From: Pseudovirgaria hyperparasitica
Lineage: Eukaryota
Strand: one strand, 5' to 3'
Length of the DNA stretch: 64,000 nucleotides
Assembly: GCA_010093815.1 (NCBI GenBank)
Contig: ML996575.1
Part shown: in pieces, positions 20,330 through 58,799 of the stretch
Position numbering within the stretch: the stretch's first letter is position 1
How the letters are laid out: every line of letters starts with the position of its first letter
Translations under genes and position numbers: made by a program
Notes under the pieces: model-generated
Told to the model about the DNA's origin: nothing
The model's database searches: none
The model's input: the letters and a program-made list of their open reading frames with translations, nothing else

Positions 20330-22600
20330 GAAGACGATAGTAATAGTTTACCTTATAAAGGGATTAGTTAATATAGAGAAGGGATGATAGGTGTTATAGG
20401 TAGACGCATTGGGCCAACCTTTAGTTAAGGTAATCCCTTAACTAATAACCTTACCCCCAGCGTCTCCACTAGTATATCTACTACTAGTAATGGTGCGATA
20501 GAAGCTTAAAATAACGACCTAGTAACTCGTAGAGAGATGCTTAACTTCTTCGTAGCATTTGCGCGACAAGGAAGGATGGTATCTCTACCTACCCTAGCCC
20601 CCGAGCGCTTTAAAGGAATAAATATTACGGCCTTCCTTCGGAAGTACGAGGATATATATATAAACTACGAAGTTCCGCCTGATAAGAAGATAACCTCCCT
20701 ACCGTTATACTACGAGGACTATCTCCGTCCTACTATTAAAGGAATAAGTAGGTTTTAGAAATAGTAGTAGGCCACGCTACGTGAAGAATTATTAAAGGAA
20801 TTCTCTCTATTTGACTCTACCCTCGAGGAAGGCACCATCCACTTTATCCGAAAATACGTGGAAATGGTTAAAGTAGACCCATCCTACTCTCTCCCTATGT
20901 ACTACTCCCGGTATCGTGTTATTATAGAGAAACTTACGGCTAAAGGAAGCCTAAGCTCGTATTCGCGAATAGAGCTCTTCCTAGAAGGGCTGCCTAATAG
21001 TCTTAAGGCTCGGGCTATAGAGAAATGTTAACTTACGATGGAAGTATATAGTTACGACTAGGTAATTATCTATAGCTTCGTATTACGAAAGGCTAGAGCA
21101 CTTAAGGAACTAGCTCGTATTAATAAGCACTTAGCCGCACAAGAGCTAGCCATAGCCATGTACTATAAATTAAAGATAGGGAGTAAGAAGACCGGCTTAG
21201 AAGAGTAGTTACATGAAGAAAGAAGAACTAATGAATTTAACTACCCCTCTCTAGTCGTAGTACACGTCGCGCTAGAATCGGATAAGTTTAACGAGATAGT
21301 AGAGAGATTTAGTAAACTAGACCTTACGTTAATTAAGATAAAGTCCTACTTTACCTCTAATCCCTTATTCCCATCCCTTAAGAAGTATAAATCTAAGCTA
21401 CTTTCGGCTATTATTAACTAGTAGGCGCGAAGGCTAAATCTTTTAGTACATCTCTAAGCACGAGGCATGCCCATAGAACTAACATAAGTTTATCTATAGA
21501 ATTATATATAGAATAGAGAATATGTCTCTACCCGAGACTCCTAAGAAGGCGTTATAGCCTAGGATAGGCCTCGAAGACCAATCGTGTGCATCACGTGCGG
21601 AGGAGATTATCTAATATATAGATGTCCGGAGATAGTAGAATATATTAGAGACGGATTACTAAATATTAACGGGGTACGAGTATTCTAAGGGCGTTTTAGG
21701 GCGAACGGAGAAGAAATCCTATTACTACCCTCCTCGGCAGGGCTATAAGCTACTCTATAAGCTATCCGGAACTATATAGTAATAGTTTAAAACGGCCTAA
21801 GCTAGTACGGAGGAGGAGTAAAGGTTTCTACGTCTATAGTAAACATTAACGCTTTATAGGGAGTGCCGGTATATAGTATTAGTATAAAACCTACGAAGGG
21901 TCCCTACTAGGCCTTAGCGGATAGTAATTTAAAAGAAGAAGTTATATCGCCCAAGAGTAAGAAAGATAGATATATAGAATTCCACGAACGCTTCGACGTG
22001 GCTAGTAATAGATATATCCGCGAGAAGATAGCCCTAGAAGAGCCCGCTATACTCGTAATATCTAGAAGGGGGATTATAAAGAGTATATCTAATTATACTA
22101 AGGAAAGAAAGATCGCCCGCCTCCGCGGAATGCGTGAAGGGTAGTATATAAGGATTATTAAGGAATAGGAGGACGGTAAGAAGAGTAGTAACTAGGGAAT
22201 GTCTAAATAAGAGCCAACGGCGCCGGAGGATAAGATAGATAAAGGGGATAGCCTAAATCCTAGTTAAAAGGCACGTATCCGAGGCGTTAAGCTTAATAAC
22301 TATCTACGCGAAGGATAGCGGCTAAGTATAGAAGCTAGCGAAGCATAGCTGGTACGCGTTCTAGGGATAACCATGAATATTACTATTAGCGAACTATTAA
22401 GCCTTAATGGTAACTTATATCGTGCGGTGTTCGAGAAAGGCGCCCCCGACTTTATAGCTAGAGAGGTCCGTAAGGCTCGAGAAGAGAGAGCCGAGAAGAA
22501 AGGAAGAAACGACTATACTATGGCTCCCGAGATAAATAAACTTAATGTATTAGTATCCCTCTATACTACGGGGACGGCTATTATATAACGAGATATTAAT
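20330..22600 (+). pseudogene. Gypsy B gag
   Basis: ERFKG.N.TAFLRKYE (ORF 20537); zinc knuckle CITCGGD(H)LIYRC at ~21586-21625. Confidence 0.8.
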
Positions 22601-25600
22601 TAGCTTAAGGAAGGGATAGTAAGGCTAGTAGCTAAGTGTCCGAGGTACCCCGTGGAAGTTAGTCCTAAAAGGGCGACTAGTATAGTACTATTTAATAGTG
22701 GCGTATAGGTAAATAGTATTTAACTAGATGCTATAAGGCGTCTCGGGCTAGCAATATCTTCGCTTCTACTATATATAAAGAACTCGAGTTTAGTTAGCGC
22801 TACTTAGTATAGTACTCTATTCGTGGGAATAGTATAGTAATACCCTATCTATATAGGTCGGATTATTACAGCTACTTCGATATTCGTATATAGCGAACTT
22901 AATTATAACCTTATTCTAGGGGAGCTATATACTAGATAGGCCTTACTTACGGTATAGAGGTTAGCCTCTAGGTAAGTACTCTTAATAGTCTACTCTATAT
23001 ATAGATAAGAATATATAACCTTTAAAACTAGTCCGGACGAGTATATTCTAGTCTTAGAGAAGGAGGGTAACTCCGTAGCTAGAGACTAACTATATAGCGG
23101 AGTATGTCGCCGGAAGCCGGAGTTAAGCCGGATTATTAGTTAAGGGCTACCCTTAACTAATAATCCGTACTAAATAGGGTCCGGTAAACCTACTAATAAA
23201 GGGGATAGGCTATATTTTTATATAGATATAGAAATGAGTTATATAGAGTTACTTTCCGAGAAAATCCGGTCTAAAAATGTTACTCGGTTATCAAGAAAAG
23301 ATAACTTAGCCGCCCTAGTTACGGCGGTAAGGTACGCTACCTTCGTACATAAATAAGGCACGATAATAGAACGGCTTATAGTAGGCTCTACCGGCCTCTA
23401 AAGACGGTATTTATCCGGGGTATTAAAGGGATTTAGTATAGCTACCATGTATAAAAGAAAGGGAGTTAAAGTACACCCCGTGGATGACTCCGAAGCCTAC
23501 CGAAAGGTTCCTAGGAATCTATTAGGGTATCTAGACTGGCGTAAACGAGCAATCGCACGGTAGGTACTTCTTCTAGCCGTCTATCTAGGCCTTAACGTAT
23601 TTAATAGGCTAATAGAGCCTCGAAGGGTAACTATCCCGCTAGGAACACGTCTAACGCCTCTATATATAAGTTAGCTAAAGATTAGAATGGAGCTACGTTC
23701 CGCGGAACTTAAGTTACTATATATAATCTTATTATATCGCGAGGAAGCACTAGCATAGGAATTCTTATACCTTAGTAAATTTAATAAAGAGGTGGCACCT
23801 CCGTAGGAGATCCGAACGGTGGAATATAAGGCATAGTAGGCTAAGAACTTTAATATTTCTAGAGCCCTTTATAGAAAGGTACTCATGATCCTAAAAGAGC
23901 GTCTTAATAGCGGAAGGCTCGAGCCCTATAGTAGTCCTTATTAAAACGCCTATTTTCTCGTGGAAAAGAAGAAGGAAGCCAATAAGGAACGAGATTATAG
24001 GTTAATTAATTCGGCGATAGAAATTAACCGAGTTACCATTCGTAATGCGGCTATACCGCCCTCGTGTAAAGAGTTCTCGGAGTACTTTATAGGGATAGCT
24101 ATCTTAACGTTTACCGACTTCTTCTTAGGATATAATTAGATTCTATTAGTAGAGCATTACCGAGACTTAACGGGGTTTATAACGCCCCTAGAATTACTAC
24201 ACGGGATAACATTACCTTAAGGGGCCACTAATTTAGTAGCTTAGTTCGTTAGAATTATATTAACTATTATATAAGAATACATCCCGGAGAGGGCTCTACT
24301 ATTCCTAGATGACTTAGGTATTAAAGGACCTATAACGAAATATAACTCTAAGGAGGCCCTGCCTAGAATTTATAGATATATCCTAGAACATTTAATTAAC
24401 GTGGATAAGGTTCTCGCGGATATAGAGCGCGCTAGATACGCCCTAAGTGGTAAGAAGACTTAGTAGTATGTTAAAGCCGCTAACGTTATAGGATATGTCT
24501 ACGATATTAAAGGGAGGCGACCGAGTAATAAAAAGGTTACTACTATTAGGGACTAGAAACCCTATAAAAACACGACGAATGTGCGAGCCTTCCTTAGCGT
24601 TTATATATATTTCTAGATATAGATCCCCGGGTACGCTATTATCGTATCACCGCTATTTATACTATTAAAGAATAAATCGGCCTAGTAGTAGATAGCTAAG
24701 GAGTAGACCTCGATGGACGCGCTAAAGATAGCTCTAACTACTACTCCCGCACTAATAACGTTATAGTATAGGATAGGTACGGGAGATATAATCCTAGTAG
24801 TAGACTCTAGTAACGTTAGATAGGGAGCTACATTAATATAGGAGAACGAGGATCGTAAACGTTAGCCATCGCGGTATAATAGAGGAATATAGTTAAAAGC
24901 TAAGAGAAACTACGACACCGTGAAGCTAGAGTACTAAGCCCTCCTCCACGCGTTATAGAAGTTCCGGTAATATCTCTATAGTATATACTTTATTATAGAA
25001 ATAGACACGAATACTCTAGTCGCTTAAATTAACCGTACCGTAACTAACTTACTAGGGGCGCTCGTTACTAGGTGGCTCGCGTAGATTTAGCTATAGAACT
25101 TTATAGTTAGACATGTACCTAGGAAGCGTAACGTAGTCGCTAATAGTATCTTACGGATATATAAAGGAGAAGAACCACTAGACGTCCCTACCTTTAACCT
25201 AGACGAGTTCGTGGACATGGCTCTATATATAGACGTGCTAGAGACGTCGTTAATTAAGCCCGTTAGCGGGAGAGATTACATAATAGGGATACTCGACTAT
25301 GTCGCTATTAAGTCTCCCTTAATAGATAAATATAGCGATAAATAGTAGAGGATTACGAAGTACCTTACTATACTCGAGAGGCTAACCAATCTAACTAACC
25401 GAGCGTATAAGGCCTTTATAACCGACTATCTAAAGTTCCTCATGCGTGACCGAATACTCTAGTAGAGAGTAGATAGGTATCGCTAATACACACGAGTAAT
25501 TAAGGATCCGAATACTAGGGCGCGTATAATTACTACCACTTATAACGAGATAGATTATAGAGGTAGCGAAGGGACCCTCGGAAGGATTAAGGATAAGTAT

Positions 25601-26800
25601 TAGTAGATAGGTATACGTAGAGACGTGCGATAGCACGTAAAAACCTATAATAAATATTAACGACGAAGTAAACTCCTCGGAGGTCTTAATAAAGGGCTCT
25701 ACCACGTTATAACGCCTATTCTTTAGTAAAGAATATACTTAGACGTAACGACTCTACTACCTTCTATAGGGTATAGTAAAGTAGTATCTATATAAGAATA
25801 GCTAAGCGGATAGACTAAGGCGGAGGCATGTACGGTAGCTACGTCTATAGTCGTCGTAAAGTTCCTCTTTAAGAACGTAATCTATAGATACGGAATTATT
25901 CCTAAAATTACCTATAATAGTAGTAGAGAAAATATAGGTACCATAGAGGAGCTCCTCCGACTCTATGGAATTTATTAGAAGGTTACGTCTACGTATAATC
26001 CCTAAGTAAATAGAATTATTAAGAGAAGTTTTATACTACTTATTAATACTCTCGCGAAGATAACTAATAGTGGATTTAAGAACTAGCCCGGCCACCTCTA
26101 TACGGTTGTCTAGGTAGATAGAATAACGACACGTGCTAGTATAGGGTATAGTACCGTATACCTCGTGCTCGGCTATAAACTAATTATGCCTATCGAAGTC
26201 GAATTCGAGTCGCTCCGAATACTCCCTTAGAACGAGGTGCGATTAACGTCCGACTTACTCGCTCTTCGAGCTAGATAACTTAAGAGAAGATCCGAGAATC
26301 TTAAGGAGGCCTATACCTACACGACACGAACGCGTGAGGAATTAAGAGAGGCATGGAATAACGACTATCACCTTCATTAAGAGTCGTTACTAGTTAATAT
26401 GATTGTCCTTCTATACGACTCATAGCGATAGAAGAATATAGGGTGGAAGCTAAGGTAGCATTAGAGGGGGCCATATAGAATCCAGTCTATGTTTAATTAT
26501 ACTTATAAGCTCGCGGAGCTTAATAGAGCCATGCTTAGAGGGACGTTTCCTAGCCATAGGTTAAAGAAATATTTTATAAGAAATGTAAGTAACGAGAGTC
26601 ACGACGAGCCCTCGCGACTACCGATTAGAAGAATTACCGAGGAAAATAAGGAGAGTAGCGATAAGGAAAACTATTATAAATAACTCACGGAACACCTCGA
26701 CGACGCTACACGAACCCGGGTGGAAGTAGTAATTCCTGCTCCGTAAGACTTTAATAGAGAAGAATATTTGCGTTTCCCTAGAATCGATATCTTCTTCTAG
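22600..26800 (+). pseudogene. Gypsy B pol (PR-RT-RNaseH-IN)
   Basis: LF(D)SG at ~22688; LP(Q)GATN(S)V at ~24212; FLDDLGIKGP at ~24302; VDSS RNase H at ~24800; integrase YNP(Q).N(G)IIER-like at ~25994; (W)RGPY at ~26462. Confidence 0.92.
23129..23167. repeat. Perfect palindrome (18-bp arms, 3-nt loop); related copies at 20421, 30432, 31637, 36425 and 57358
   Basis: CGGATTATTAGTTAAGGG-CTA-CCCTTAACTAATAATCCG. Confidence 0.95.
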
Positions 26801-26851
26801 GGGATAGAAGTTTTTTTAAGAAGGGAAGGGATGCTTATAAAAGTAGTCTTA

Positions 26852-27325
26852 TAACGATGAACTCCATCATCGAAAAAGGATAATAAACTCCATCATCGAA
26901 AGAGGATGATGAACCCTATCATTACTATAAAATAATAAAACTTATTATTAAAGCAAGTAATGCTCGAAAGAAGACATAATGGCGTTTACGCGAATTCCAC
27001 CTACCATATATTAAAGCCGGTCGTGTAATCGAAGCCTATCTATCGAAGGCCTATTTCGTTACTATAGAACGGGCCCTATTAGAAACTAATAAGGAAGAAA
27101 AGAAGGAGGAGGTATAGGAGAAAAAGATACTTATAGGAAGTCTTATAAGGATAAGAATATACCCGGTATCTATTCATTTATAGATTCCGCCATATACCCG
27201 GTAGACACATTCATTTATAGATTTCCTATGTACCTAGTATATATTCATTCATAGATTCGACACGTATACGGGCCTACGGCCGTTAGCAAGGATCATTTAT
27301 AAAAATCACTATATACCCGGTATTC
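26852..27325. repeat. Two tandem arrays (~27 bp and ~36 bp units) between pol and ORF3 of Gypsy B
   Basis: gatgaactccatcatcgaaa.. repeats at 26856-26950; tatacccggta...ttcatttatagatt repeats at 27158-27325. Confidence 0.8.
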
Positions 27326-27478
27326 GAGGAGGCATAAAAGAGAACTTAAGATAGTATATAACTCTTCCCTCTTATACCTCTCTATACCTTCTTAATTAAT
27401 AAAACCTCCTCCTCTACTTCCGCCTCGCTTAACTATCTCTTCTTAGAACGTAACTCGCCGATAGAACCGATAATAATA

Positions 27479-30420
27479 ATGGCCCCGCCGAAAAAGAAAA
27501 CGCCTACCCGTGAAGAGTTATAAGATCGTTAAGTACTAATAAGATAGATACAGTTCTAGTTAAGAGTCGTGAGTGCTAAAGTAGGGCTATCGACGGCTAT
27601 CGTGGTATTAAGACTATCTACTACTCCGTATAGATAGGCTATAGAAGCTACGGAAGTAAATAAGTCTACTATTAACCGAATTATCGCTATCTAGGACCTA
27701 TAAGAGCGATAGGACTATATTCTAGACACGTTTAATAATCTCCTTTATATTACTAGCCTCGTAGAATAGCTCTTAAGTAGTATAGTTAACCTCTTCTAGG
27801 AAGTAGGAGCCGTAATAGGGTATAGTAAGGTAAAGATTAACTCCTCTATTCTAAAAGAAGTCCACGAGATAATTCGTCGTGGAAGAGATACTAACTCCCG
27901 TATCCTAAAAGCTAAAAATGCGATTCTATAAAACTAGCGAAAAGACCTCCCTAATAACGATGGCTAGTTACTCTAATCCGCCCTCGGATAGCTCCAGTAA
28001 ACATAGAACTTTATAGAAAAGCTAGTAGCGCTCTTACGAATGCGGACATAGGCGAGAGCGAGAAACTAGTTAAACGTATCCCTATGGTCCCGAATCGGCT
28101 AGGGATAGAAGGGAAGGGGAATTAAGGTATATCTTTAGAGCTCTAATATTAATACCGCCCTAGCTAGCGATAGTAACGAGGACGGTCTATCTCTCTAGTA
28201 ACTCTCGAACTACCCTAGCCGATAAAATAAACTAACGTTCCATAATAAGACGGGACTTATTATCCCCGCTAGTTAATAGTTACGGATAAGTAGAATGGTT
28301 TATAGGCCCGTCGAATACTACCTATAAATTAAAGAGATAAGTATATCGCCTCCGCCTTAGACCTTACCGTCGCTAAAACTAGCGTAGATAACGCCTATAG
28401 TAAAGTCCCCTCTACGAAGTACGCCTTCTAGTTTAGTAGTACGTCGTCTCTTCGAAGCTAGTCGTCCGTTTAAAGTAAGTATTTCTTCTACTACTACTAG
28501 TATATATCTCTTACCGGGCCATGTAAGAACCTCTTTAGTGCCCGTTACGGCTATGCTAATAAAACCCACTCGCGGACGTACCTTATCTACCGGCCCTTAG
28601 TAATTACTAGGGGCGCCTATACGATAATCCCCGGTTATTCTTAGTTCGTACCCTAAGATAATAGTATTAGTTAAGGAAGAGGACGAGTCTAAGAAGTGTT
28701 AATGCGCGCCTTTAGTAACGAAGACTTTTAAGGCAGCTACATTATTAAAGAAGAATTTCATGAGCATTAAGGGAATGGCCCTACTAGTACGCTAGAAAGC
28801 GTAGATAGATAACATGGCTATTCCGTATAAAGTCTGCTATAAGCATTACTAAGACGTGGCTAGAAAGAATAATATGCTCGTTAGCGTGTCCCACTTAAAC
28901 CTAGTAGCGAGACTTAAAATAGTATATGAGTTTAGAGATAACGTAGGGGCCCTTAAAGTTTATAAGGACCGCTATACCTGGTTCGCGAAGTACACGCGGC
29001 CACCTTATCCGATAGAGGCATTAGATATCTATTATTACTAGGCCCTAGAGACACTAAAGTAAGTTATTAATATTAAAACCATCCTTACTAGTATTATATT
29101 TATGATTTAGAAGGAGGACGGTAGAATAGGTAGGTAACTCTTTAACGAGTGGGAACGTACCGGAAGTATTAATATTAAAGGGCTCTTCGAGCTACTTAAA
29201 AAGACGACCTCTATACTTAATAAGAGTATCCTAGAACTTACGAGGGATGAATTTAATATATATAAGTACCACTAGCGCATGTTTAATAAGAAATTAAACT
29301 ACGGCTAGCTACGAACTATATACCACTCCTATATCTAATAGTTTATTAGGTAATACCTACTTTACTAGCTTACCTATATCGCTCTTCGGCCCAATCTTAA
29401 CTACTATCTAATCTCGTACCCGTACTATGCGAAGTCCTAGGATAGAGGTAATAAGACGGGTTTTAAGCATCTCGATAACGCCATTAATCGAATCCTCGAT
29501 CCTAGCGATAGACACGGGTTTAATATAATCTAGGGGAGTATTAGTCTCGACGATAAATGAAGTGACGACTATACTATAATCGTTCCCCGCTCCTATAAGT
29601 TCTTAAACGAATAGTAGTCGAAGGCTAAGCTCCGCGAGGGGGTTAATCGAAACGGTATAATCACGGCTATTAACGACAAGATCTATAATGCGGACGATAA
29701 GAAATGATTTAGTCCCTTTGTCCCGGTCCCCTACCAGTCCCTTAAAGTATGTATCTCTAGCCTACTAATAATACACGGCGCCTAGGGTCCCGTAAAGGGT
29801 AGAAGACGTATAATGCTTCCATGGTATGTCGCGATTAGCCCTAATCACATAATAATGGAAGTGCCTAAAATGGGTACATGGGAATAACTCGTAGTAGCTT
29901 ATAGGAATTTAACTCCGGGACCCACGTCTCCGTTAGGATTTTCTAATAAATATAGCGCGATTCCTTTTGCCTTCCTAGCCGTAGTTTAACTCCCGAGTTT
30001 TAACGCCGTTAGTAACGTATTAGTCGGCCGTAAAAGATAGGATAGCTAGGAGGTAAAAGAAGAGGTAGCTACGTGGCTTAACGCAAGTCCTTAATAACTT
30101 AAAGCTAAGGTAGACGCCTGGTTTAAGGAGGGCTCGAGGGTATTCGTAGAGACCTTTAAGAAAATAGTAAGGTAGGAAAGGCTAGTCTATGGGGATAGGT
30201 TATTCTAGAAGGAATTTAACGAGGCGCGTGCCGCCAAGCGGCTAATTAATTTTAAGAAATTCGAGTCTAACGCGGGCCTAGATAATATTAAAGAGAACTT
30301 CTATAGATAGAAGAGGCCTAACGAACTATCCGATGAGAAGGAATCTAACCTCTCTAAGATGAGCGACACGATTCTTTAGGAGCTAGCTTGCGACCTCGAG
30401 TACTAAGATTAGGCGCCTGA
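27479..30420 (+). pseudogene. Gypsy B ORF3: putative 2OG-Fe(II) dioxygenase (PhyH-like fold) with long N-terminal extension
   Basis: One frame from ATG 27479 (MAPPKKKTP): CxC 28697, CxxH 28835, LISYPYYAK, GFKHLD (HLD at 29468-29476), I(Q)GSISLDD....D(C)TIIVP.S(H), ISS..IHGA (H at 29774), RRR at 29801. End is approximate. Confidence 0.78.
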
Positions 30421-30594
30421 AAACCTACCTAATTATTAGTTAAGGGCTGCCCTTAACTAATAATCCGGGCTAAGGTTTACCCGCGCCGAGAGGTTTACTA
30501 GGGGCGTATTTTATTCGTATTAAGGTCTTTCTTTTAGGCGTTCTTTATACGGTTTCTTATACGGTTACTATACTACTAAGGGTAGTAGTTCTAT

Positions 30595-30982
30595 GGGCCG
30601 GGGAGGTATATATGGAAGGCCGCTCCTATAGCCCTATATATATGTGTCCCTGGCTCGATTACATGGATTTATTATATATTTAAGGAGGGCGTTTTCCTTG
30701 GTCATTCTGCTCGGCGCGCTTCCCCTATTACTAATATTCGACTATTCGACCTTTCCTTACGTTCATGGGCCTCTATAGATATTGATTATTAGGCTTAGCT
30801 ATTAAAGAATTGATTAAGAGTATTATATAGACCCGTCCTATCGTAAAAGAGAACTAATAAGAAGTCGTGCGTTTAAAGAGAACTTATAATACCTAGGAGA
30901 GATACTTGTGAGTTCGTCGCGACTACTATACTAGGAATACAGCCATTTATAAAAGGGATACACGTAGCGATGGCTTACCACA
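30595..30982 (+). repeat. PPT plus 3' LTR (30611-30982) of family B
   Basis: GGGCCGGGGAGG followed by the LTR ending ...TTACCACA. Confidence 0.95.
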
Positions 30983-31670
30983 CTACTTTATATAGTATCT
31001 ATTTAGAATAATCTAGTAATAATAAGGTATAAAATGGCTCGAGAAGCGTAATATAGAATATATTATATATCTTTAACGTAGAAGGGAGTTATAACTCGTA
31101 CGTCTAGTTATTAATTACACGAGTAATCTTATATAGACCTATTATTATATAGTTAAGCTTCTTCTTTAGCCTAATACTATAAATATTCTTACTATTTAGT
31201 AAAACTTTATCCCTAATATTAAAGATTATAGGTTTTCTACCCTTGTTATAGTGCGATTTACTATAATTTATAGTATCTTATAGTAACTTTATAACGCTTC
31301 TTTACGTTTAGAATAGTTCTATAGTAATTTCTATTACTTTAACGTTAGGTCGTTCTACTTTAAACTAAGTCCCTAAGAACTATATATTATAGTTTAGTAA
31401 AAAAACTTCTTTTACATCCCTAAGAGGCCAACTTGGTCCATTCGGGGTAATATAGCGAGATATATACCTTAATCGATAGAGCACACCGAGTACACTAACT
31501 ACTACTATATATACGTACGTGTAGCGTCGAAACCAAGACGTTATCGCCGTATAAAGATATATATACACCCTCTTAAAATCCTCACGGAGATAGAGGCACG
31601 GACCACGCTACTAGAACGCCGATACACCGACCCCCTTTTATTAGTTAAGGGTAGCCCTTAACTAATAAAT

Positions 31671-33060
31671 ATGGCGGCCTTAGGCACTAACATACCCCAG
31701 CATATACCGGATATACCCCTACCGGTACGATAGAAAAGGCCATATAGTAATATTACCGAGGGTAACCATATACCTATCCAAAACGTAGAACACACCTAAA
31801 GGCGCACGCCGCCATAGATAGACGGAATAAAGGGGACCCCGAGAGGGGAAACCCTCCTAGATCATATTAACTACTAGGTAGCACGTATAGAGAAGGAAGC
31901 CGGAGAGGGCTAGAAGACCCTTCTATATATATTCTAGGACCTTATCCGGAACCTAAAGGGAATTATAGAGGAGAAGAAGAAGATATAACTAGGAGGACTA
32001 GAGGGTAGGCTCGACCGAATAGAGGCTAGTCTACGTAGAATCTAGGAGGAACTTACTTAAGGTAAGCGCCCTAGTACATGGGTATAAATAGTAGTAACAC
32101 TAGAGGCTATACTACGGGCCCCCCGGACCGGCGACACGGCGTATAGTATACGCGTCGTAATCTAGGATAAGGATACCCTAGCATAGGTCTAGTAAGTATC
32201 CCTAAAGGATATAGTAAGTAAGATTAACGAATAAAAGGGAATATAGTTAAACGTCGTCGCTACTAAACTTACGCTAGGAGGAGTAGTACTTACCACGATA
32301 ACAAATATCGCGTAATAGACTATCTCGCGCGATCCGAACGCGATTAGTAGTATCTTCCTAGGCGCCTCTATTAGGGCGGCCATATACCCGATATAGGTAT
32401 ACTCTATATCTATAAGCGGATAGGTTATCGGAGAAGAGGACATTACGTGGATAGAATAGTTAAATAAGCGAAAATACCCAGGGATTAAGATTATAAGAGT
32501 ATAGTAGAAGAATATATAAGGGATTAAAACTAGATCGAAGGTATACTCCACTATAATAGTAGAGCTTAAGGACCCCGCCCTCGCGTATCGAATTACGTAA
32601 GAGGGATTCCTAGCGGAAGGGGAGCTTCTTATAGCGGAACCATAGGATAGAGCATAGGCGATAATATAGTACTTTAACTATTAGGGATACGGGTACACGG
32701 TATAGCGGTACTTCTAAAAGACCAGGTATAGGTGGTGTCGATAAGAATATAGTACCTAGGAGTACCCCTATAGAATATAAGGAGAGGGCTAGAGGGATAG
32801 GGACACGGCGAAGTACTCTAACTACGATAGCAAGCACCCGTCGTGGTCGACTACGTGCGCGAAACACAAATAGGTTACCGAATACATCTACTTAATCCGG
32901 ATAAAGAGAGCAAGGTAGCTATAAATGATGCGACCTACTACCGTTCCTCTCTTTACTATAATACTACTACTATAGACTACCTCCTTATAAGGAAGCGGTT
33001 AGGAATGGTAAACCGTCCCGAGAAAGCTAATAATAGGACGGCCCTAAGGAATTACTAAGG
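31671..33060 (+). pseudogene. LINE ORF1 (gag-like, zinc knuckles)
   Basis: ATG at 31671; (QC)FN(CQ)GYG(H)T..R(C) at ~32668-32712. Confidence 0.8.
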
Positions 33061-33139
33061 CCGCCGCCGTATAAGGATAGTCGCGTCTTAGAGGAACGAA
33101 TATACAGGCCTACACATTCCCTAGCACCCAATAAAAGAC

Positions 33140-36100
33140 CAAGATATACTCCTAATTATATAGGCAAACGTATAGTATAAATATAAGAACTAGGCGATAC
33201 TCCTTAAGGAGACTAGAGCTATAATACTCGCTATACAGGAGCTATATAAACACTACCAGACGAACAAACCAACAACACACCTAGAATATTATATAATACA
33301 CCCCCTAGGACCGGAGAGGAGAGTCCTCTTCCATGTCTATAAGTCTATCCTACTCTTATTATAGTCGTATACTAAACGGGACAACCTCCGGATAATACTA
33401 CACCTCTAGACGAATATCGGACCCCTCTATATACATAATATATATAATTAGAACCGATTGCTTTAGGCGGATAACATGCTTAAGGGCACCACCGAGCTAG
33501 GATAACACATCCTTCTAGGAGACTTTAACCTCTATTATAGCTAGTAGGGTAGACTAACTATTACCCGCGAAGAGCTTCGAGCTAGAGAACTACGCACCTA
33601 ATACTACGGCTTCCTATACCTTCTTATACTAGTAGGATAGATTACCTAGCGAAAACATAAATAAGATAAGGGCGGATCTATACTCGACCTTACCCTAGCC
33701 ACTAGACATATTTATAATAGGACTTAATACTACCGCCTAAGCCTTATATAGATAGACTCTAACCACGAATACATGGAGACCGTAATAGATATATCTACCC
33801 CTTAAGACTAACGAGGGCGATAGCTATAGAAGGATACTAACTAGGAAAAGTACCTAAAGGACCTAGAATCGACGATCCTAGACCCGTCTATAGTCGACGT
33901 ATCTAATGGCCCGGCCATCGACCAGGCCGTGAATATACTCCTATAGGCGTACTAGGGAGTAAGAGATAAACACGTGCCGTACTAAATATATAGACCCCTA
34001 GACCCGAAAAGCATACCTTAAGTATAAGAGCATAGGCGAGAAGTCTAGAGATTATATATACGCGTATACTATAACCGCACACCTAAAGCGTAGGATAAAT
34101 AGAGAGAGGCGAGAAGATAATAAGATAAGGTCCTCTATAACGAGCGACGTAAATAGTAGCGTATAGTCACGGATAGACACACACGTAATACTACTAGACT
34201 ATGGCATATAGTAAAATGGGCCAAAAGCACCGCCTCCCCGACACCTATACCACTTATACCTCCCCTTATATATTAAGAAAAGACGTACTCCACGAGCCTC
34301 GAGAAAATAGAGATCCTATAAGAGGTTATGTTCCCTCTCCTAGAACCCGTAGACCTATTAGATATCGACGGCACGGAATACCCGGAAGCTGTAAGTATCC
34401 CTAGGGAAATCATAGACGACGATATACTCGGCGCTATTAAGACACTCCCGAATAATAAAGCGCCCGGGCTAGACGGAATTCCGAATCGATACCTTAAGAG
34501 GACTATATAGGCGACCTTACCGATTATAGGCCATATATTCCGAGCGTGCGCCCGTATAGGATACTACCTATAGAGCTTCTAAACCGTATATACGGTTATA
34601 CTCCTAAAACCAGGGAAGAGTCTAAACACGCCGAAGGGATAGAGGCCGATCGCCCTCCTCTCCTACCTTAGTAAGGTACTAGAAGCCACGATTACTAAGA
34701 AGATAAGTATAGTAGTATAGGTACACGGCCTTCTTCTAGTAAACCAGAAGGCGAAGGTAGGAAGCTCCCTAATTATAGCCATTTAATACATCCTCGAGGT
34801 TATCTAGACTATATAGAAATAAGGACGAGTCGTCACGCTACTCTCCCTAGATATAGTAGGGGCGTTTAATAAGGTAAACCACATAAGACTTATCCATAAC
34901 CTCCGGATAAGGCGAATACCTAAGTGGATTATACGATTTATATAGTCCTTCCTCGCGTAAAGGACTACTTAAATATATATCCCCGGATACCGAAGCGAAT
35001 ATAAGGAGACGGTATACGGCATCCCGTAAGGGAGCACTATCTCCCCGATCCTCTTCCTCTTCTTTATAGTAGACCTCCTTTAGGGAATAGAATATATAGA
35101 GATAGTCGGATACGCGGATAATATATACCTCCTCGCGGTCGATAGTAGTACTAGTAGAATATATACACGACTTAAACGAGACTACGAGAAATGTATCTAG
35201 TAGGTAAAGCGCCACGGAGTAAAATTCGCACCTAAAAAATACTAGCTTATATACTTTATTAACCGCTATAGAGGATAGGCTACTAGGGAGGGGGCACGTC
35301 GCCCCTAAATCGACGCCTTTACCGAACTACTAGTATAGAGTATACGCGCACTCGGCGTTATAATTAATAATAAGCTAAAATAGGGACCACAGGTGGTACA
35401 CGCCGTCTCTAGAGCCCTCTAGGTAGAAACCGCTATACGCCGGATTACGGCATCCACGTAGGGAACAGCCTAGGATAAGGCGAGACAGCTATACGTCTCC
35501 CTAGCACGCCTAGCCTTCATATACGGACACGAGTGCTAGTATACGGCCCTTATACAAGCTCGGTAGGTAAAGCTTAAGTCTATATAAAACCGTATACTCC
35601 GCCTTATCTCCGGCGTATATAAAGCTACTAATATAACGCTCCTCCGACGCGAGATAAACGTAATAAGTATATAGGACTTCTACTAGATATAGAGACTTAT
35701 ATACTTTACTAAATAATAAGTATAAGAACGTGGAGAAGATAGGGTATATACCTTCGCCGTACTACGTACACGTATCCGCGCGTATTACTAGGCCCTCCCT
35801 ACTATAGGATAAACTCGAGTATAATATAAATGCTATATAGAGGCGGACTTAAGCTAGACTATATAGGAGGTTCGAAATAACCCGGATGCCGTCCTAAGCT
35901 AATAGAGCCCTAAGGAGCTTAGCCGCGTTATGCGGTCGTGGATCTAGGATAAACAGAGGGAGGTACTTAAAGCCTAGTGGGCCTTCTAATAGGATAGGTA
36001 TCTAGAATAGATCCGAGGGCCTTAGAAGAAACTAAGTAAATAGATATATAAAGGGCTAACGAAGGCCTAAGTATCCATACTCCTCTAAGCCCGAATAGGC

Positions 36101-36420
36101 GCCATAGATCTTCTATATTACCTCTACTAGAGAGGCGTCCTAGATATATCTCCCTAGTGCGAGGACTACGGCCGGAGAGGTATAATACGCCACTACCTCG
36201 CGACGTACTCTAGCCTCTATACCCTAAGATAAGCCCTCGTCCGTATAACGAGGACCTCTAACATTACGCGATAGCTTAATAAGTACTCTAAGGACGTCGC
36301 CCGATAGATACTTATATACCTTCCTCTCCCCTAGTTCTAGTAGACCCGCGTATATATATCGGAAGAAGCCTAATATATACTAGAAGAACCCTAGTATACG
36401 TCGGAAGAACCCCGGGAGAA
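33140..36420 (+). pseudogene. LINE ORF2 (AP endonuclease, RT, C-terminal CCHC)
   Basis: LAIQE, LGDFNL, DS(D)H; KAPG.DGIP at 34457; GIP(Q)GSTISPILF at ~35018; YAD(D) at 35111; CED(C)...HYL..(C) at ~36158. Confidence 0.92.
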
Positions 36421-36700
36421 CCGCGATTATTAGTTAAGGGTAGCCCTTAACTAATAATCTCCGCATCTATACGTGCTACCTAAGGGTAAACCATTATAAT
36501 ATAGGCTATAGGCCCATGGGTAGCCCCTAGGGCTATATATATATAAAGAATAAGAGGATAGACAGAGCGTAGTCATGGATATAAGGGAGTTTTTCCTATT
36601 CGTAGGTTTCTTCTTATATAGTAGCTTAGACTAGAGGAGGTATACGCCTATAGAGTGGTACTCTACCTAGTTTACTAATATTATTATTATTATTATAGTT

Positions 36701-40984: not shown

Positions 40985-41329
40985 TATAGAGGATCCCTAT
41001 TATTTAATATAGTATTACTTATCTCTATAGTAGATCGTATCGACCTTCTCGGTTCTAGTTAGACTATCTTAACTATAGTACTATATAGGGAGTAATTCGA
41101 ATATAAGAATAGGGTTATTAGATAGTAGTATAGTTAGATAGAATAATAGGGTGTATTCTATTATAGAACGAATTACTACCGAACCCTTTCGGTAGAAATC
41201 CAAGAGTATATATATAAAGGGACGCCGATCTATCTAGCACGTAACTATTTACCGCCCTTCACGTTACCTTCTAACCCTATTAGCTAAGGTACGTGTAGGT
41301 CGGGTCCTACCTAAGGCTAAGTCCTAACA
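40985..41329 (-). repeat. 5' LTR of family C copy 1 (~345 bp)
   Basis: Reverse complement of 43509-43853; ends ...GTCCTAACA. Inner boundary is inferred. Confidence 0.85.
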
Positions 41330-43508: not shown

Positions 43509-46500
43509 TATTAGGACTTAGCCTTAGGTAGGATCTAATCTATACGTACCTTAGCTAATAGGGTTAGGAGGTGACGTAAAGGGCGGTAAATAGTTACGTA
43601 CTAGATAGATCGGCGTCCCTTTATATATATACTCTTAGATTTCTACTAAAAGAGTTTAGTAGTAATTCGTTCTATAATAGAATATACCCTATTATTCTAT
43701 CTAACTATACTACTATCTAATAACCCTATTCTTATATTCGAATTACTCCCTATATAGTACTATAGTTAAGATAGTCTAACTAGAACCGAGAAGGTCGACA
43801 CGATCTACTATAGAAATAAGTAATACTATATTAAATAATAGGGATCCTCTATAATTAGTATTAATCCTAGCCGTTTCTAACCGAGAAGTAGAAACATTAG
43901 ACTAAATCACGGAGCTTTTAGATGAAGAAATAGTAGATACGCCGAGTAACTTCTAATAATATAAAGCCGGATAACGAGTCGTGGCGGAGCTACGCGAGGT
44001 GTTATAATAAACTATCGCTAAACTTTAGAAATACGTCGCGAATTAGGCTCGAGAGATTTAAACCCTTAAAGAATAGGTAGAACGCGCGAAACTCCTTGTA
44101 AAGAGATAAGAACTTAAGGAGTCTCTTAAAGAACTACGCCGAATAATAGTAGGTAGACGACTTCCTATACTAATTTAGGCGGAATTAGTTTACCTACCAT
44201 TAGAGTTGCGATAATCTACTATATACCTAGCCGCTTCGTTACCGATTTACTCTACTTCTTCCCTAGGTATACTAAAATCTAAAGACCTAACTATATTTAT
44301 AGGGAAGAACTAAAAGGAGTAGAAAGACTAGAAGAGAGACTACGAAAAGTACTTCCTCGATAACCCTCTACTCTTTTCTACTAAAGTATAACGTATTTCG
44401 TTTAGAGAACGATACCTAGACTTATAGTCCCGCGATTAATAGGATAGATAGAAGGAAGTATAGCTACTATCTATAATAACCTAGGAATATTTAGCTATAT
44501 TTATACTAAATACCCTTAGAACGGATAGAGAACGTGAAAGAAAGGTACTATCTAAGTTAAGAAGCGTAGTATAACGACCGAACTAGACACCTACTTAACT
44601 ACTATAATACCTCTAAAACCTATAGAATAATATCCCTACGCTATAGAAAAATATTCGTATATTCTAGTTTCACGAAGTACTACTTCCGTTAATCCGCGAA
44701 AGACTAGGAATAGTATTATTAAGTTTTAACTATCTACACGAATTAGAGGAGAAAGCTAATAAATACTACCACATTCTTAAGGAACGCGGCTCTCTAGGTA
44801 AAACCAACGAACCCTATACGGGTTAGAAACGAGGTTAATTAAATACATTCGATTAAGAGTAATCTTACCGTGATTAGCGCTAGAAGAGCGTAAATTAGGG
44901 TAGAAACGCGTTAAGAGGATACTAAAATAATTAAGGCGGTGCTTCTTAACACGGAAAAGGATAAGGTATAGACTTAAATATAACGTCTATTATAAAATAG
45001 TAGGATTATAGCGCACTTCGTTACTATAAGTATAGAGAAATAGAATATATTTCGCCTAACTATAAGAATCTAAAAAAAGAGTAGGCTAGTACACGAGACC
45101 TAACCGCGTTCTTAGCTAAATTATATATACTTAGAAGGAGCCGTAGCGCCTTCCGGCGAGTAAAGACCTAATATTACTAAAAGTATCGTTACCTATAGTA
45201 AATAGTAATAAAACTATATAGACCCTTATAGTTACTAGTATAGAAGATAACTATATTTTATCGATTCTTGTAAAGGAGTATAGATTATCGTATAATCTCG
45301 GTAAAGTTAGCCGAACTATTATAGTTAATAGATATAAAGTTAGAACTTTAGATAAAGCTATAACGAATTACGAAGTTCATAACTCGAAGATAATAAAATA
45401 GTAGATATCTAATAAATTTATTATGGCTAATATTAGCTAATAGAATATGATTCTAGGGATACCTTAGCTTAGACGCCTAAACCCTATCCTTAATTTTTAG
45501 AAGGAGATATTAACGTTCCGATAATACCGTGGTAAATTATACTAGTAAGTTATAACTATTAGTAAGAAGGTATAGAACCTCGCCATACGGACCCGATTAT
45601 TACTAATCTATCTTGTATCCTTATTAATTATTAATAAAGATAAGGATAATAGTAATAATCGGGGCGAAGATACGCTACCCGACGTATATTTATAGTATAT
45701 AGATATGTTTTTAGTAGGCGATGTGTTACTTCTCCCTAATTATAGACTATATAAGCTAAAGATTAAGCTTAAAGAGGGAGTAGACGTCCCTTATAGTCTA
45801 CTTTACCTACTTTTAAGACTAGAACTCGAAGTTCTTCGTAAATATATTAAAGAATACCTTAAAAGAGACTAGATATGTTAGAGTATATTATCGGCTAACG
45901 CACCTATTCTCTTTATAAAGAAGAAAGATAGAAGTTTACGTCTATACGTCGACTATCGGGTACTAAATATAGTGACTAAGAAGAATCGTTATCTATTACC
46001 GCTAGTTAGTAAATCTTTAGACTAATTAACGAAGGCAAAGTACTTTACGAAGCTAGATTTATAAGATATATATTACTAGCTTCGAATTTATCGCGGAGAT
46101 AAGTAGAAAACCACATTTCGGACTATATATAGTTATTTTAAGTATACTATTATACTATTCGGGCTAATAAATGCGCTAGGAGCGTTTTGAGAATATATTA
46201 ATACTATACTCGTAGGATTACTTAACGTGATTTACGTAGTTTATCTCGATAATATACTAATTTACTCCGATAGTATGTAGGATTATAAAGAATATATAAA
46301 ATCGGTGCTAAATTATCTAAGGTAGTATAAACTCTATATAAAATTATCTAAATGCGAGTTTCACTAATAAGAAGTTGGGTTTCTTGGCTTTATTATAATA
46401 TATAGTAGCCTAAAAATGGAGCCGGAGCGTGTAAAGACCATTATAGAATGGCTAGAATCTACTACTATATATTAAATTAGAATATTTATAGGTTTCGTAA

Positions 46501-53400: not shown

Positions 53401-55742
53401 TAGGTGGTAGTAGGCGTCGTATAGATCGAGCTTAGTAAAGATCTTCGCGCGCTCTAGTCTATTAATAGACTCGGAGATAAGAGGTAGTAGGTAATAATTC
53501 TTTTGTATAATATTATTTAGGCCGCGGTAGTTAATACATAGATAGAGACTTCTATTCTTCTTCTTTATAAAGAGGATTAGAGCTCTAGCTAGGGATATAC
53601 TAGGCCTAATCTATCCTCGCGTAAGGTTCTTTTCGATATATTCTTAGAGGACCTATAGCTCGGCTTCTAATAGAGGGTAGATGGGTCCGTATAGGGGTTA
53701 TTAACCGTCTTCGAGATTAATAGTAAGGTCGGTAGGTTAGTATTAAGGTAATTTAGACGAGTCGATCGCTAACGCGATATATTAGTATATTTTATACTAA
53801 TATAGTAGGTTTTCGTCCACTTTAATACTAAGCTCTCTATTTTAAGTAAGTAAGAGGATATAGATGGCGGAGATTACCTTTTCGTAGTCCTTCTGGAATT
53901 ATTTATCGTTAACTAGCTATACTAGGTTCTATTATAGTGGGTATATACGCTAGCCAGCTGTTTTCTAGATAAAGTCTAGTTTCGGGTTATATTTTTCGAG
54001 CTACGGTATACCGAGGATCATGTTAAAGGGACTGTCTACCACGATAAAGGTTAAGTAGTAGGGTTTCTACTTCCCCCCGCTGTCCTAGATACCGTATTTA
54101 ATAGTATAGATACCCTATGATTTAATAGGACCGTTGATACCATAGAAGGTGGTACCTATTAGTACTTAAATATCGACGTTAAGTTCTCGTGCTTATTAAG
54201 TCGATATAACGTTAGTAGCTAAACCGCTATTAAGTATTACGGTCTAATGTTATCTATAAGGGACCTTAATAGGCCTAGCCTATAGTTCGATATACTAGTT
54301 GGCTAGTTATCCCTCTATTTTAGTTACGTCTATAAGTCGCGAGAGTTCCTTATAGATAGTTAGTTTTTTATATCGTATACCGGGTAGTTAGGCGCGATAT
54401 GTCCTAGCTACTAGTACTTATAGTATATAACTAACTTAGTATCTATATTAGTATTCGGTGGTTTCCCTAAGCGGCACTCGGGTGCTATATAGCCTATCCT
54501 ACCATAGGTATAGTAGGTGACTTTAGGTCGTTTATACAAGTCGTTTCTCGTGTCTTAATATATCGACTAGTAGAAAGATCTATGGTACGGGCCTCGTCTT
54601 CTCGAGTTCGTAGAGTAGTAGCGCCCACGAGGTATTCCGCGCGATCTATTACTAAACTAGTCCTCTTTAGACGATTTTATATCGGATTAGATTAATAGGG
54701 ATAGTCGTGCGCCTATACGACGTTAGTTATTTATTATACGCTAATATTATTCTACGAGATTCGCGAGTACCTAAAGGTTAGTAGGGGTAGACGTTATAAG
54801 GTCGATGCGTTCCTTTATACTCGGGTTAAGGGACCTTTTAAAGTTATCGTATTATTAAACTATGCGATCTTCCTTAGCTTCTCTCTAAAGAGGTCGGAGG
54901 TATTTAAGAAGTTATAACGGGGATTGTCTCTCTTACTATTAAGTCTTAAAGATATAGCTCTAAGCCTATTCGTGTTACTCGGCTCTATCGCTAAAGTATT
55001 AAAGAAGGAATTCGGTAAACGTGTCCTAGTTATACGTATCCTTAGGGTGTTTAATTCGATATACCATCTAACGTTTAGATGGCGTTGGGTCTAGGTAGTT
55101 CTATACGAATCTAATCTTATTACTATTATTCGTAAATAGGTGGAAGAATCGGCTATACTAGTAAGCCCATTCGTGAAAGCTTCTCCTGGTTTTACCGTCG
55201 AAGTAAGATAGTTTCTTAGGCCGAGGTAACTAGGATAGTAATAGACTTGGTTAGACTATTTCGGCTTAAGTTAATCTATATTAGTATAGATTAGTTACTA
55301 CTAGCACTAAAGCGCGTAGTGCGGCTTCGAGTCTAGCGGTTCGTCCTTACGCTTTATTAAGTTCGCGAAGTTACTACTCGAGCTAAGCCTAACGCTACCT
55401 CTCCGTGTATAGCTTAGTATATACGTTATCGTAAGGCGTGGTTAATGTTAGTCGGTTCTAACAAATTAATTCATTAACGTTAATAGGGTCTAGTCTTATA
55501 GTAAGGATAGGTCTAGTATAGTATGAACTAGACCGCGATGGAGTATGATAGACTCCTTTCTTATCATCTAGGTAATCTTCTATAGTTATATAGAATACCG
55601 TACTAGTTATTAGTACGATGGCCTATAGGGTGTACTTATCGGTAGAGGTGGTTATAGGGAGACTATTCTCTTCGTTTAGATTTAGAGAGAGTCTCTTATA
55701 TAAGGTAGTACCACGGGTATTATAGCGCGTAGTAGGAGCTAT
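50500..55742 (-). pseudogene. Family A gag-pol, copy 2
   Basis: gag start ~55742; two CCHC knuckles at ~54520-54385; protease VIL(D)SG at ~54240; RT, RNase H, IN and chromodomain as in copy 1. Confidence 0.92.
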
Positions 55743-57120
55743 CTCTATAAGCTACCGTCGTACTATATAGAGAGGAATTAAAATATAAAGAGTGAAGACG
55801 TGGGATAGTAGTCTAATAGTTTATAGAGAGATATAGGAATATATTTATAGAGTAATCTTACTCTTATACGAGGTTGATTCCTAACGAGTAGGAATCGGTT
55901 TATGCGGTCCACTTATATAGTGACCTCGCTTAACTTAGCTAACTCAACCTAGCTCTGGCCACTACGTGGCTATATGGATTAGAATAGTCTATATAGGTCC
56001 GTTATGGTTCCCGTCCTAACAGATAGACGGAGTAGTAGAATTAGATAGTCGAGGCGTATTTACGCGTATATTATAACTATAAGTAGAATAACTAGGTAAG
56101 GTTAGTCTATGTCGCGGAATTCGCGTATAATAATAGCCGATATACGTTAACCTACGTGAGTCCGTTTAAAGTAAACTTCGGTTAGAACCATAATATATAG
56201 TTCTTAGAGACTTAGTTTAAAGTAGAACGACCTAACATTAAAGTAATAGAAATTACTATAGAACTATTCTAAACGTAAAGAAACGTTATAAAGTTACTAT
56301 AAGATACTATAAATTATAGTAAATCGCACTATGACAAGGGTAGAAAACCCATAATCTTTAATGTTAGGGATAAAGTTTTACTAAATAGTAAGAATATTCA
56401 TAGTATTAGGCTAAAGAAGAAGCTTAACTATATGATAATAGGTCTATATAAGATTACTCGTGTAATTAATAACCAGGTGTACGAGTTATAACTCCCTCCT
56501 ACGTTAAAGATATATAATATATTCTATATTACGCTTCTCGAGCCATTTTATGCCTTATTATTACCGGATCGTTCTAAATAGATACTATATAAAGTAGTTA
56601 CGTAAGAAGGTATAGATATCTACGAAGTTAAGTAGATACTTAGCTAGTAACGCGCCGAAGATGGCACGTGGCTATATAAGATTCGTTAGAAAGGATATAA
56701 TTCTAATAAAGATACTTAGGAACCTGTAATAAATATTAGTAAAGCAGCGATATTAGTATATAAGTAGCGATTAGTAAAGGAAGCCGCGGAATCGTAGAGA
56801 ATTATACTAAAGTACGGCGATTCGACGTTTTTTAGTATAGTTTAGCGCCGAGGACAGCCGCCTAAAAGGAAGAAGGTAAAAGAGATATAGATCTTTAAAA
56901 TATTCTAAGGAATTAAGGAACTTCCTTAGAAAGTTCGAACTTAGAACTTTAAAAAATTTAACTAAAAAAGAGACTTAGAAAAATGATTTACTAAGAGAAA
57001 TAGACATCAAAAATCGGTGCCGATCGGTATAGATCGGTATAGATTACGAAAGAGATTAAAGAAGTTATTATTAAAGAAAGATGAAATTAAGAAAGCTAGA
57101 AGAAAATATAAAGATCTATA

Positions 57121-58799
57121 ATAATAATAATAATAATATTGGTAAACTAGGTAGAGTACCACTCTATAGGCGCATGCCTCCTCTAGTCTAAGCTACTATA
57201 TAAGAAGAAACCTACGAATAGGAAAAACTCCCTTATATCCATAACTACGCTCTGTCTATCCTCTCGTTCTTTATATGTATATAGCCCTAGGGGCTACCCA
57301 TGGGCCTATAGCCTATGTTATAATGGTTTGCCCTTAGGTAGCACGTGTAGGTGCGGAGATTATTAGTTAAGGGCTGCCCTTAACTAATAATCGCGGTTCT
57401 CCCGGGGTTCTTCCGACGTATACTAGGGTTCTTCCGGTATATATCGGGCTTCTTCCGGCATATATACGCGGGTTCACTAGAACTAGGGGAGAGGAAGGTG
57501 TGCGAGCATCTATCGGGCGACGTCCTTAGAGTACTTATTAAGCCATCGCGTGATGTCGGAGGTCCTCGTCATACGGACGAGGGCTTGTCTTAGGCCTCTA
57601 GTTCGAAGTCGGATGACTCCTACAGGTTCGACGTGCCCTATACCATTAGGCCCTACTCCTGTTTTCGCCTTATCTCATCCCCTTTAGGCTTATATCTCCG
57701 GCTCTACTAGAAGAGGGGCACGACGCCTCCTCTAGCTAGGAAACTACGAGGTTTACTCCTTAAACCCATGTTACTAGCGTGCGTGCCTAGCGACACGTTC
57801 TATCTCTTTATGAATTAACACGCGCATCCGTTCTCTCGGGCCATATAGTAGTCTCCCCGGCTAGGACGTGATCCCGCCTACTTCTAGGTATACTAAAGGT
57901 TAGAGCCTATTAAAGGGGTGAGGTCCTTAGAGCCAGTAGTTACTACTATATACCACGCCCCGCCTTTAAGCATGGCTACTATCCGGTTTCGCGTTGCCCA
58001 TGAGGATATCTCTATGATGGGCCGACCGTGTCTTATAGGCGAGTATCCTTTGAATCCTATACGTGTATACTTGCGTGACGCGCCTAGGCGACTTAAGCAT
58101 CCTCTACCTACTAACCCGACTTGTTTCCACTACTTTTTAATAGGTCCCTATAGCCGCCTCTTGCCTATGTCCGTGTACCATTATCTATGTATACTAGCGC
58201 CCTACCTCCTACGGTAGACTATGACATCTCTCGTACGCGGGAGCCGCTCTATCTATCCTAGACCTAAGCGGTATCCCGTATCGAGCGAAAGGTCTTAATA
58301 GAGTCGCGCTGCTGGTGGTCGCGCTAGGCGTCTTAATAAACGTAGTTTAATACTATAGGAGAGTTAGCCTTAACAAGTTCATCCGTAGTAGTTTGTAGTT
58401 GCCCTCGACGTGATTTCTTACTAATCCTTACGCACCTAGAGCCATTTAAGCCTCGAGGTGTCCTATCGCGCTACTAGGACTTCCGCTTTCTCTACCTATA
58501 TGGTAAGGTAGATTTAGGCCTACTTTTAATATAGTAGTAGCGCGTCGGATGGTTTTCTTATCCCGGTATCCTCGTGGACTCCTCTTAACGCGTTGATTAA
58601 GAATAGGATGGAAGTGTATACTATCCTAGCTGGTTTGTTACGGTGTGGTCCCTATAGAGTAACGCGTCGCGAAAACTCTATAACCACCTACCTAGCGACG
58701 ACGAGGTCGCCATTAACGCCGCTCCGAACCTCTTGCTACCTCCGAAGAGGCATTGCCTAGCTACGATAACGTGGACGCGGTTCGTGAGACTTCGTAGCC
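57121..58799 (-). mobile_element. Chimeric retro-insertion: 1.2 kb unrelated sequence joined to the last ~470 bp of the LINE
   Basis: 57121-57594 is the reverse complement of ~36223-36690 including the tail; 12-bp TSD TAAAGATCTATA at 57109-57120 / 58800-58811; empty site at ~18450-18480. Confidence 0.88.

Follow-up and report, generated by a model that had tools for sequence, protein, structure and literature searches.

The stretch of DNA analysed here (hereafter the window) covers 64,000 nucleotides of contig ML996575.1 of Pseudovirgaria hyperparasitica (NCBI GenBank assembly GCA_010093815.1). It is a nest of retroelements altered by repeat-induced point mutation (RIP), with TpA/ApT ratios of 1.67-1.70 and (CpA+TpG)/(ApC+GpT) ratios of 0.30-0.32, in which paired copies differ almost exclusively by transitions. 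Two of these elements, a long terminal repeat (LTR) retrotransposon of the Ty3/Gypsy type (Gypsy B) and a long interspersed nuclear element (LINE), carry the same palindrome. An earlier note, made from the letters of this sequence, had listed six such palindromes, and all six are present. A scan of the window for TTAGTTAAGGG-NNN-CCCTTAACTAA with up to three mismatches returned six matches, against none in 100 dinucleotide shuffles: the match starting at 20421 has one mismatch, and those starting at 23136, 30436, 31641, 36430 and 57363 have none over the 22 specified bases. The dyad symmetry is perfect over 33-39 bp in five of the six copies, and the invariant core inside this perfect palindrome measures 25 bp. 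When the window was searched for perfect palindromes whose arms measure 11 bp or more, only these five and a single further family came up; the counts in five shuffled windows were 0, 0, 0, 0 and 1. The palindrome is a real, non-random and unusual feature.

Gypsy B (19545-30978, plus strand) is an 11.4-kb element whose 368-bp LTRs, delimited by self-comparison, cover roughly 19545-19912 and 30611-30978. Its target duplication measures 4-5 bp (ACTAC), and its gag, protease (PR), reverse transcriptase (RT), RNase H, integrase (IN) and a further open reading frame (ORF), ORF3, stand in one frame, heavily mutated by RIP. Its first copy of the palindrome, c1 (20421-20445), is degenerate, as the earlier note had recognized, with a 10-bp stem, a 5-nt loop and a folding energy of -11.9 kcal/mol. 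It lies about 500 bp past the 5' LTR. The probable gag ATG (20537 or 20576, on the basis of one weak homolog match, E 8.8e-4) follows about 90-130 nt downstream, so that c1 is probably located in the 5' untranslated region (UTR) rather than in the 5' region of gag to which it had been assigned.

The second copy, c2 (23129-23167, -26.4 kcal/mol), is a perfect 39-bp palindrome between PR and RT, its symmetry lengthened by CG..CG. Its neighbours are the protease ILG motif (22910-22930) and the N-terminal YKRK motif of RT (23447, 93 codons downstream); it is in frame with both protease and RT, with an in-frame TAA inside. Among 53 relatives with the YKRK motif (P0130-P0279), the predicted pol starts 45-146 aa before this motif in 33, although some of these predictions may be fragments. 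This places a predicted ORF break near c2 in many relatives and suggests separate gag-PR and pol ORFs in much of the clade of Gypsy B. The closest protein matches of Gypsy B (30-41% identical) align only from the YKRK motif onward, downstream of c2; there is no PLTNN-type peptide in P0001-P0006, and a 'GLP' peptide occurs upstream of YKRK in 4 of the 53 relatives. The third copy, c3 (30432-30464), is a perfect 33-bp palindrome 146 bp before the 3' LTR. It had been described as standing just after a dioxygenase ORF; it is indeed downstream of this ORF, but the homology of ORF3 ends about 220 bp earlier (~30211). ORF3 (~28650-30210) is in the gag-pol frame downstream of the integrase and has relatives of 28-31% identity, some of which contain the 2-oxoglutarate oxygenase domain PF05721 (PhyH); one protein with this domain comes from a lichen-forming fungus. 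The dioxygenase label is supported by these homologs, but not by a direct Pfam match, since the RIP-damaged frame of ORF3 gave none.

The LINE (~31394-36697, plus strand) is a 5.3-kb non-LTR element with ORF1, ORF2 (endonuclease and RT) and an (ATT)n tail, RIP-mutated in turn and with a target duplication of about 10 bp. Its 5' UTR contains c4 (31637-31669), a perfect 33-bp palindrome separated from the ORF1 ATG (31671) by a single nucleotide, as had been noticed earlier. The outer arms of c4 have TTTA..TAAA in place of ATTA..TAAT, the same change appearing in mirror image on either side. A perfect 35-bp palindrome, c5 (36425-36459), lies where ORF2 is expected to end and the 3' UTR to start, about 220 nt before the (ATT)n tail; residue ~875 of homologs of ~1100 aa maps to 35680, which puts the end of ORF2 near 36385. 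The last copy, c6 (57358-57392, a perfect 35-bp palindrome), is part of a LINE 3' end in a separate retroposed chimera of 1.68 kb (57121-58800, minus strand), which starts with ~1.2 kb of unrelated 5' sequence, continues with the final 474 bp of the LINE and ends in (ATT)n. The earlier note was right to see a LINE tail here; it is no segmental duplicate, however, but an independent retroposed unit with its own 11-bp target duplication (ATAGATCTTTA), absent from the other host copy at 18454-18500. The ~1.2-kb part has no LINE protein or DNA similarity, and the chimera may be a non-autonomous element making use of the LINE tail.

A second copy of the element hosting Gypsy B and the LINE (56021-56988, inverted) contains neither insertion and thereby gives the exact junctions and target duplications of both. 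They are the youngest insertions in the window, and both families are very abundant. Two runs of N, at 16983-17937 (955 bases) and 18545-19149 (605 bases), break up this host element.

Gypsy B and LINE sequence accounts for all six copies, and the ~45 kb of other repeat families for none, so that the confinement to two families reported earlier holds within the window. None of the five independent sites falls within conserved coding sequence; each is at the margin of an ORF block (5' UTR, gag-PR/RT junction and 3' UTR). The flanks had been called unrelated, and they are: only three of 40 comparisons between copies, scored so as to tolerate transitions, exceeded z = 3, all three being transition-rich low-complexity alignments. 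A scan with a single arm and up to two mismatches gave 14 matches, of which 11 belong to the six palindromes and three are lone half-sites within coding regions, one at 28663 and two at the homologous positions 46761 and 63647. The centre of the palindrome is C-A/T-G or its RIP form (TAG/CTA), of the CTG type in Gypsy B and of the CAG type in the LINE when read on the sense strand. As the palindrome now reads, each of the three frames contains a stop codon. With respect to the Gypsy ORF, c1 and c2 stand in a common frame; c3 and c5, each taken against its upstream ORF, are both in a second frame, which reads TAG..TAA TAA. The core is bordered by TA on both sides in five of the six copies, but TA is self-complementary and cannot be told from the palindrome itself; no other consistent target-site duplication was found. 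Two candidate extensions of the motif were rejected: the 8-mer GGTAAACC near c2, c3 and c5 was shared equally well in 131 of 300 random site sets, and inverted GATTAT..ATAATC pairs, considered as a wider family, numbered eight (five independent) against about five expected.

Other hairpins occur in the window. The second perfect palindrome family, TATATTAGTATA-WWW-TATACTAATATA (27 bp; 367-393, 53778-53804 and 61333-61359), is found at the same homologous position in each of three copies of a different Gypsy family, ~80-180 bp upstream of the start of RT homology, with an RNA hairpin energy of -9.4 kcal/mol. A third Gypsy family has an imperfect hairpin of ~66-75 bp directly upstream of RT homology (39178-39243 and 45595-45660), with a 12-bp outer stem (CCCGATTATTAC..GTAATAATCGGG). 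Its outer 8-mers are those of the palindrome described above, an 8-mer which is common in the window (19 times).

Pairing and the form before RIP

The sense RNA of the perfect copies is predicted to fold into a stem of 15-18 bp with a 3-nt loop. The hairpin energies range from -18.3 to -26.4 kcal/mol, and none of 200 shuffles folded as well. Together with the mirrored change in c4, which leaves pairing intact, and the symmetric extension of c2, these stem energies point to nucleic-acid pairing, rather than a pair of protein half-sites, as the property that has been kept.

The letters of the arms may have been altered by RIP. Over Gypsy B and the LINE (19545-36691), TCAG occurs twice against 252 TTAG, and TCAA 10 times against 390 TTAA. 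Given this near-total depletion, the TTAG and TTAA of the arms could be RIP products, as the earlier note had proposed, and a form with C at the TA sites may have preceded RIP; in that case the in-frame TAA of c2 would have been CAA. Two observations weigh against this form: no copy in the window has C at the TA sites of the arms, and the CWG at the centre has escaped mutation in two of the five independent copies, although its context is ~95% depleted elsewhere. The less mutated copy, c6, is no arbiter, since CAR is ~90% depleted there as well (five CAR against 62 TAR). Between c5 and c6 there is a dip in differences (one in 83 bp against about five expected) that stems largely from a lack of CpA/TpG sites. 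RIP depends on context in these elements: CpA before A or G is down to 1-7% relative to TpA, whereas 10-28% is kept before C or T.

The palindrome within the family sequences

We aligned contigs from two runs of the source sample (X1 and X2) and from two runs of another sample with the same species label (X3 and X4). The contig pieces that align to Gypsy B and the LINE number 48,363 in X1 and 16,853 in X2, so that both elements must be extremely abundant in the source organism. Among the variants listed for X1 and X2, none of nine indels and none of 15 joints falls at a palindrome, and none of the five sites appears empty. X3 and X4 give no cover of Gypsy B, but contain a relative of the LINE, less than 90% alike, on contigs of 4.0-4.4 kb that align over 31831-36513 and show G/C where the window shows A/T. 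The alignment of this relative ends upstream of 31831, and the 3' site region is retained: three contigs (records 22 and 23 of X3 and record 26 of X4) cross 36402-36513 with a gap of at most one letter. Finally, c5 and c6 are in separate insertions, each with its own target duplication. Taking the listed contigs without empty sites, the ungapped LINE relative and the independent c6 together, the palindromes were already part of the family sequences when these copies arose and are not late insertions, which supports the earlier note in treating them as a shared module.

In the prokaryote, metagenome and viral sequences searched, the core of the palindrome is almost absent. The exact core is absent from the metagenome contigs searched. 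A RIP-tolerant version of the core was found there at seven loci, representing four distinct sequences, all of them prokaryote-like single sites, and at six single bacterial sites in 596 Gb of prokaryote genomes. Viral contigs gave no match to it, and no related locus was confirmed there. Rfam returned nothing at the gathering score, with two chance-level matches in the LINE 3' UTR.

Readings of the shared palindrome

We tentatively favour, at somewhat less than an even chance, a portable hairpin module that acts on RNA or single-stranded DNA, has been copied between Gypsy B and the LINE, and is kept as a cis-acting stem-loop. The shared palindrome would owe its origin to copying rather than to convergence, with recombination or template switching on RNA or cDNA spreading it between and within both elements, and it would be retained through its action in cis as a nucleic-acid stem-loop. 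It might serve as a common handle for a trans-acting factor, such as the LINE ribonucleoprotein or a host RNA-binding protein; alternatively, with its stops in three frames, it might be a structure that marks off translation and RNA ends at ORF boundaries. A role as stimulator of programmed readthrough or frameshifting, which calls for a recoding site a few nucleotides upstream of the structure, does not fit c2, whose in-frame TAA lies within the 5' arm of the stem and not before the stem. If the module is functional, it would show that retroelements without kinship to one another can exchange cis modules and perhaps rely on a common factor. The most specific form of this proposal is a 35-bp hairpin cassette exchanged between the LTR element and the LINE as a cis signal at ORF-block boundaries, recognized by one trans-acting factor; we regard it as rather unlikely. 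Were it true, two unrelated classes of retroelement would share a regulatory 'currency', and acquiring it would have gone along with their success in this genome.

Several points weigh against a stem-loop kept for its action. Non-coding or tolerant locations would also be expected from random insertions filtered by selection. The Watson-Crick symmetry is perfect, which exceeds the needs of an RNA stem, and template switching in quasi-palindromes can maintain perfect symmetry without selection. The loop base of the sense RNA is A in the LINE and U in Gypsy B, which makes a reader specific for the loop less likely. A hairpin of about -18 kcal/mol placed 1 nt before an ATG, as at c4, is expected to hinder scanning ribosomes. 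At the other end of the LINE, c5 is ~220 nt from the tail, whereas a recognition stem of the stringent type would adjoin it, and some contigs have in common with the LINE just its final ~90 bp (loose ends at 36605), a part that does not include the palindrome. The evidence that the palindrome is integral to its families also has its bounds: as the indels and joints are those listed, with a further 1144 differences, nine joints and 1088 loose ends beyond them, palindrome-free copies may exist at a low share, and the LINE relative shows DNA across the 3' site, with the palindrome letters there not visible.

The main alternative, possible though doubtful, is a selfish mobile mini-palindrome, in line with the tiny mobile palindrome that the earlier note had mentioned. 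As the nuclear equivalent of mitochondrial GC clusters, double-hairpin elements or Rickettsia palindromic elements, it would have inserted several times into master copies of both families and survived where it was harmless (in UTRs, at an inter-domain junction and in frame). This alternative fits the flanks, which are unrelated beyond the palindrome, and the mixture of site kinds, with no single fixed position. Insertions tolerated within an ORF would also agree with c1 and c2 lying in the only frame able to stay open, where the single TAA could be a CAA changed by RIP, and with the length of c2, whose 39 bp amount to 13 codons. A duplicated TA target would moreover account for the TTTA..TAAA of c4 without two mirrored mutations. 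On the other hand, this self-complementary TA is the only candidate for a consistent target duplication, and among the indels and joints listed none reveals an empty site at the five sites. Five insertions in ~1.7 kb of non-coding sequence of two families, with none in ~45 kb, would be very unlikely if insertion were uniform, and if the 25-bp core were the mobile unit, an identical 8-bp target (GATTAATC) would be required at three sites. The window contains no DNA transposon with the ends of the palindrome, and no eukaryotic miniature inverted-repeat transposable element known to us is as small as 35 bp with a spacer of 3 bp. If selfish, the palindrome would extend mini-palindrome mobility to fungal nuclear genomes; if also mobile alone, it would be, to our knowledge, the smallest mobile palindrome of a eukaryotic nuclear genome.

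It is unlikely that the palindrome is simply a neutral recombination seam, a hairpin that stalls reverse transcriptase and promotes template switching, so that modules (UTRs, gag-PR, pol-ORF3 and the LINE coding block) were joined there and the hairpin has no function of its own. The blocks are indeed bracketed by it, c1 and c2 enclosing gag-PR, c2 and c3 RT-IN-ORF3, and c4 and c5 the entire LINE coding region; the LINE relative of X3 and X4, whose alignment stops upstream of 31831 and yet keeps the 3' site region, would suit such a history, as would the presence in the window of a chimera with a LINE 3' end. Nevertheless, none of the joints listed connects two palindrome sites, the joint of the chimera (~57594) lies away from its palindrome, and the first arrival of the same 35 bp in both elements would be left unexplained.

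Less probable still is a DNA operator for a dimeric protein, such as an element-encoded anti-silencing factor comparable to plant VANC, which the earlier note had put forward together with a speculative link to ORF3. Dyad symmetry, several copies per element and a non-coding location are what such an operator would display. This proposal is weakened by the mirrored change of c4, which preserves pairing but alters both half-sites, and by the extent of conservation, which spans the full 33-39 bp and not a short pair of half-sites, more than an operator needs. Neither element was found to encode a DNA-binding protein: the matches of ORF3 are confined to PhyH-type oxygenases, the LINE lacks such an ORF, and Pfam detected no DNA-binding domain in any frame of 26900-30432, although RIP damage limits the sensitivity of this search. 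For the link between the palindrome and ORF3 we found no evidence.

Palindromic linkers can contaminate assemblies, but an assembly or library artefact, such as a hairpin linker, is hardly credible here, given that RIP-type transitions at the centre distinguish the sites, that the sites are inside elements with normal target duplications, and that independent runs from another sample and study align across one of them.

Comparison with known systems

The nearest precedent that we found is in the fungal GalEa Copia elements, whose 'extended Conserved Hairpin Site', 33-62 bp long, recurs in conserved form in different families of a single species (PMC5445492). The conserved hairpin site (CHS) resembles the palindrome in being a short hairpin, with function unknown, in a non-coding part of fungal retroelements (PMC5445492), and ATTAGT/ACTAAT occurs both in the palindrome arms and in the RIP form of the CHS 9-mer (CTAATTAGT). 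The hexamer ATTAGT, which occurs 77 times in the window, was discarded as a tie between the two, as it carries little weight. The CHS is described as directly following the 5' LTR, in place of the primer binding site, whereas c1 is ~500 bp past the LTR; it has a loop of 12-41 nt and an A/A mismatch and belongs to one Copia clade (PMC5445492). The palindrome has a perfect stem, a 3-nt loop and several copies per element, and both an LTR element and a LINE are carriers. In the window, CHSeq1 (CTGATCAGT/CTAATTAGT) was not found paired with CHSeq2, the 9-mer occurring only at 18351 and 58914, outside the palindromes. Because position, loop and sequence differ, the palindrome is not a member of the CHS family.

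The 3' stem-loops of stringent-type LINEs, shared with short interspersed nuclear elements (SINEs; eel UnaL2 and zebrafish L2, PMC1636434 and PMC4176376), are similar to c5 in kind but not in position. Like them, c5 is in a 3' UTR upstream of a short-repeat tail; it is also carried by a chimera that may be non-autonomous, and lies in a region present in a LINE relative. Unlike them, c5 ends at 36459 and the tail starts only at ~36678, a different small stem adjoining the tail, and the palindrome recurs in the 5' UTR, an LTR element having three more copies of it. The chimera carries the palindrome within the entire last 474 bp of the LINE; other contigs share only 36605 onward.

Short hairpin-forming repeats that behave as mobile mini-palindromes include the GC clusters and double-hairpin elements of fungal mitochondria. 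The Rickettsia palindromic elements (PMC1779305) are likewise short hairpin repeats, found at unrelated sites and sometimes in frame within genes. Such mini-palindromes are known from bacterial and organellar genomes and from many kinds of site, whereas here the palindrome is nuclear, AT-rich and confined to two retroelement families, with no empty site seen. The VANC proteins bind non-coding motifs of their own elements (PMC5735166, PMC10398659). Their targets in the Arabidopsis VANDAL transposons (PMC5735166) are similar to the palindrome in being sequence motifs in non-coding parts of a transposon that serve the element, but they are short tandem arrays bound by an element-encoded protein, and no such protein was seen here.

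Literature searches by motif strings and by concept returned no report of such a palindrome common to an LTR element and a LINE. Already known are cis-acting hairpins within single retroelement lineages, and short mobile palindromes in bacteria and organelles; what appears to be new is the same perfect palindrome at five ORF-boundary positions across an LTR element and a LINE.

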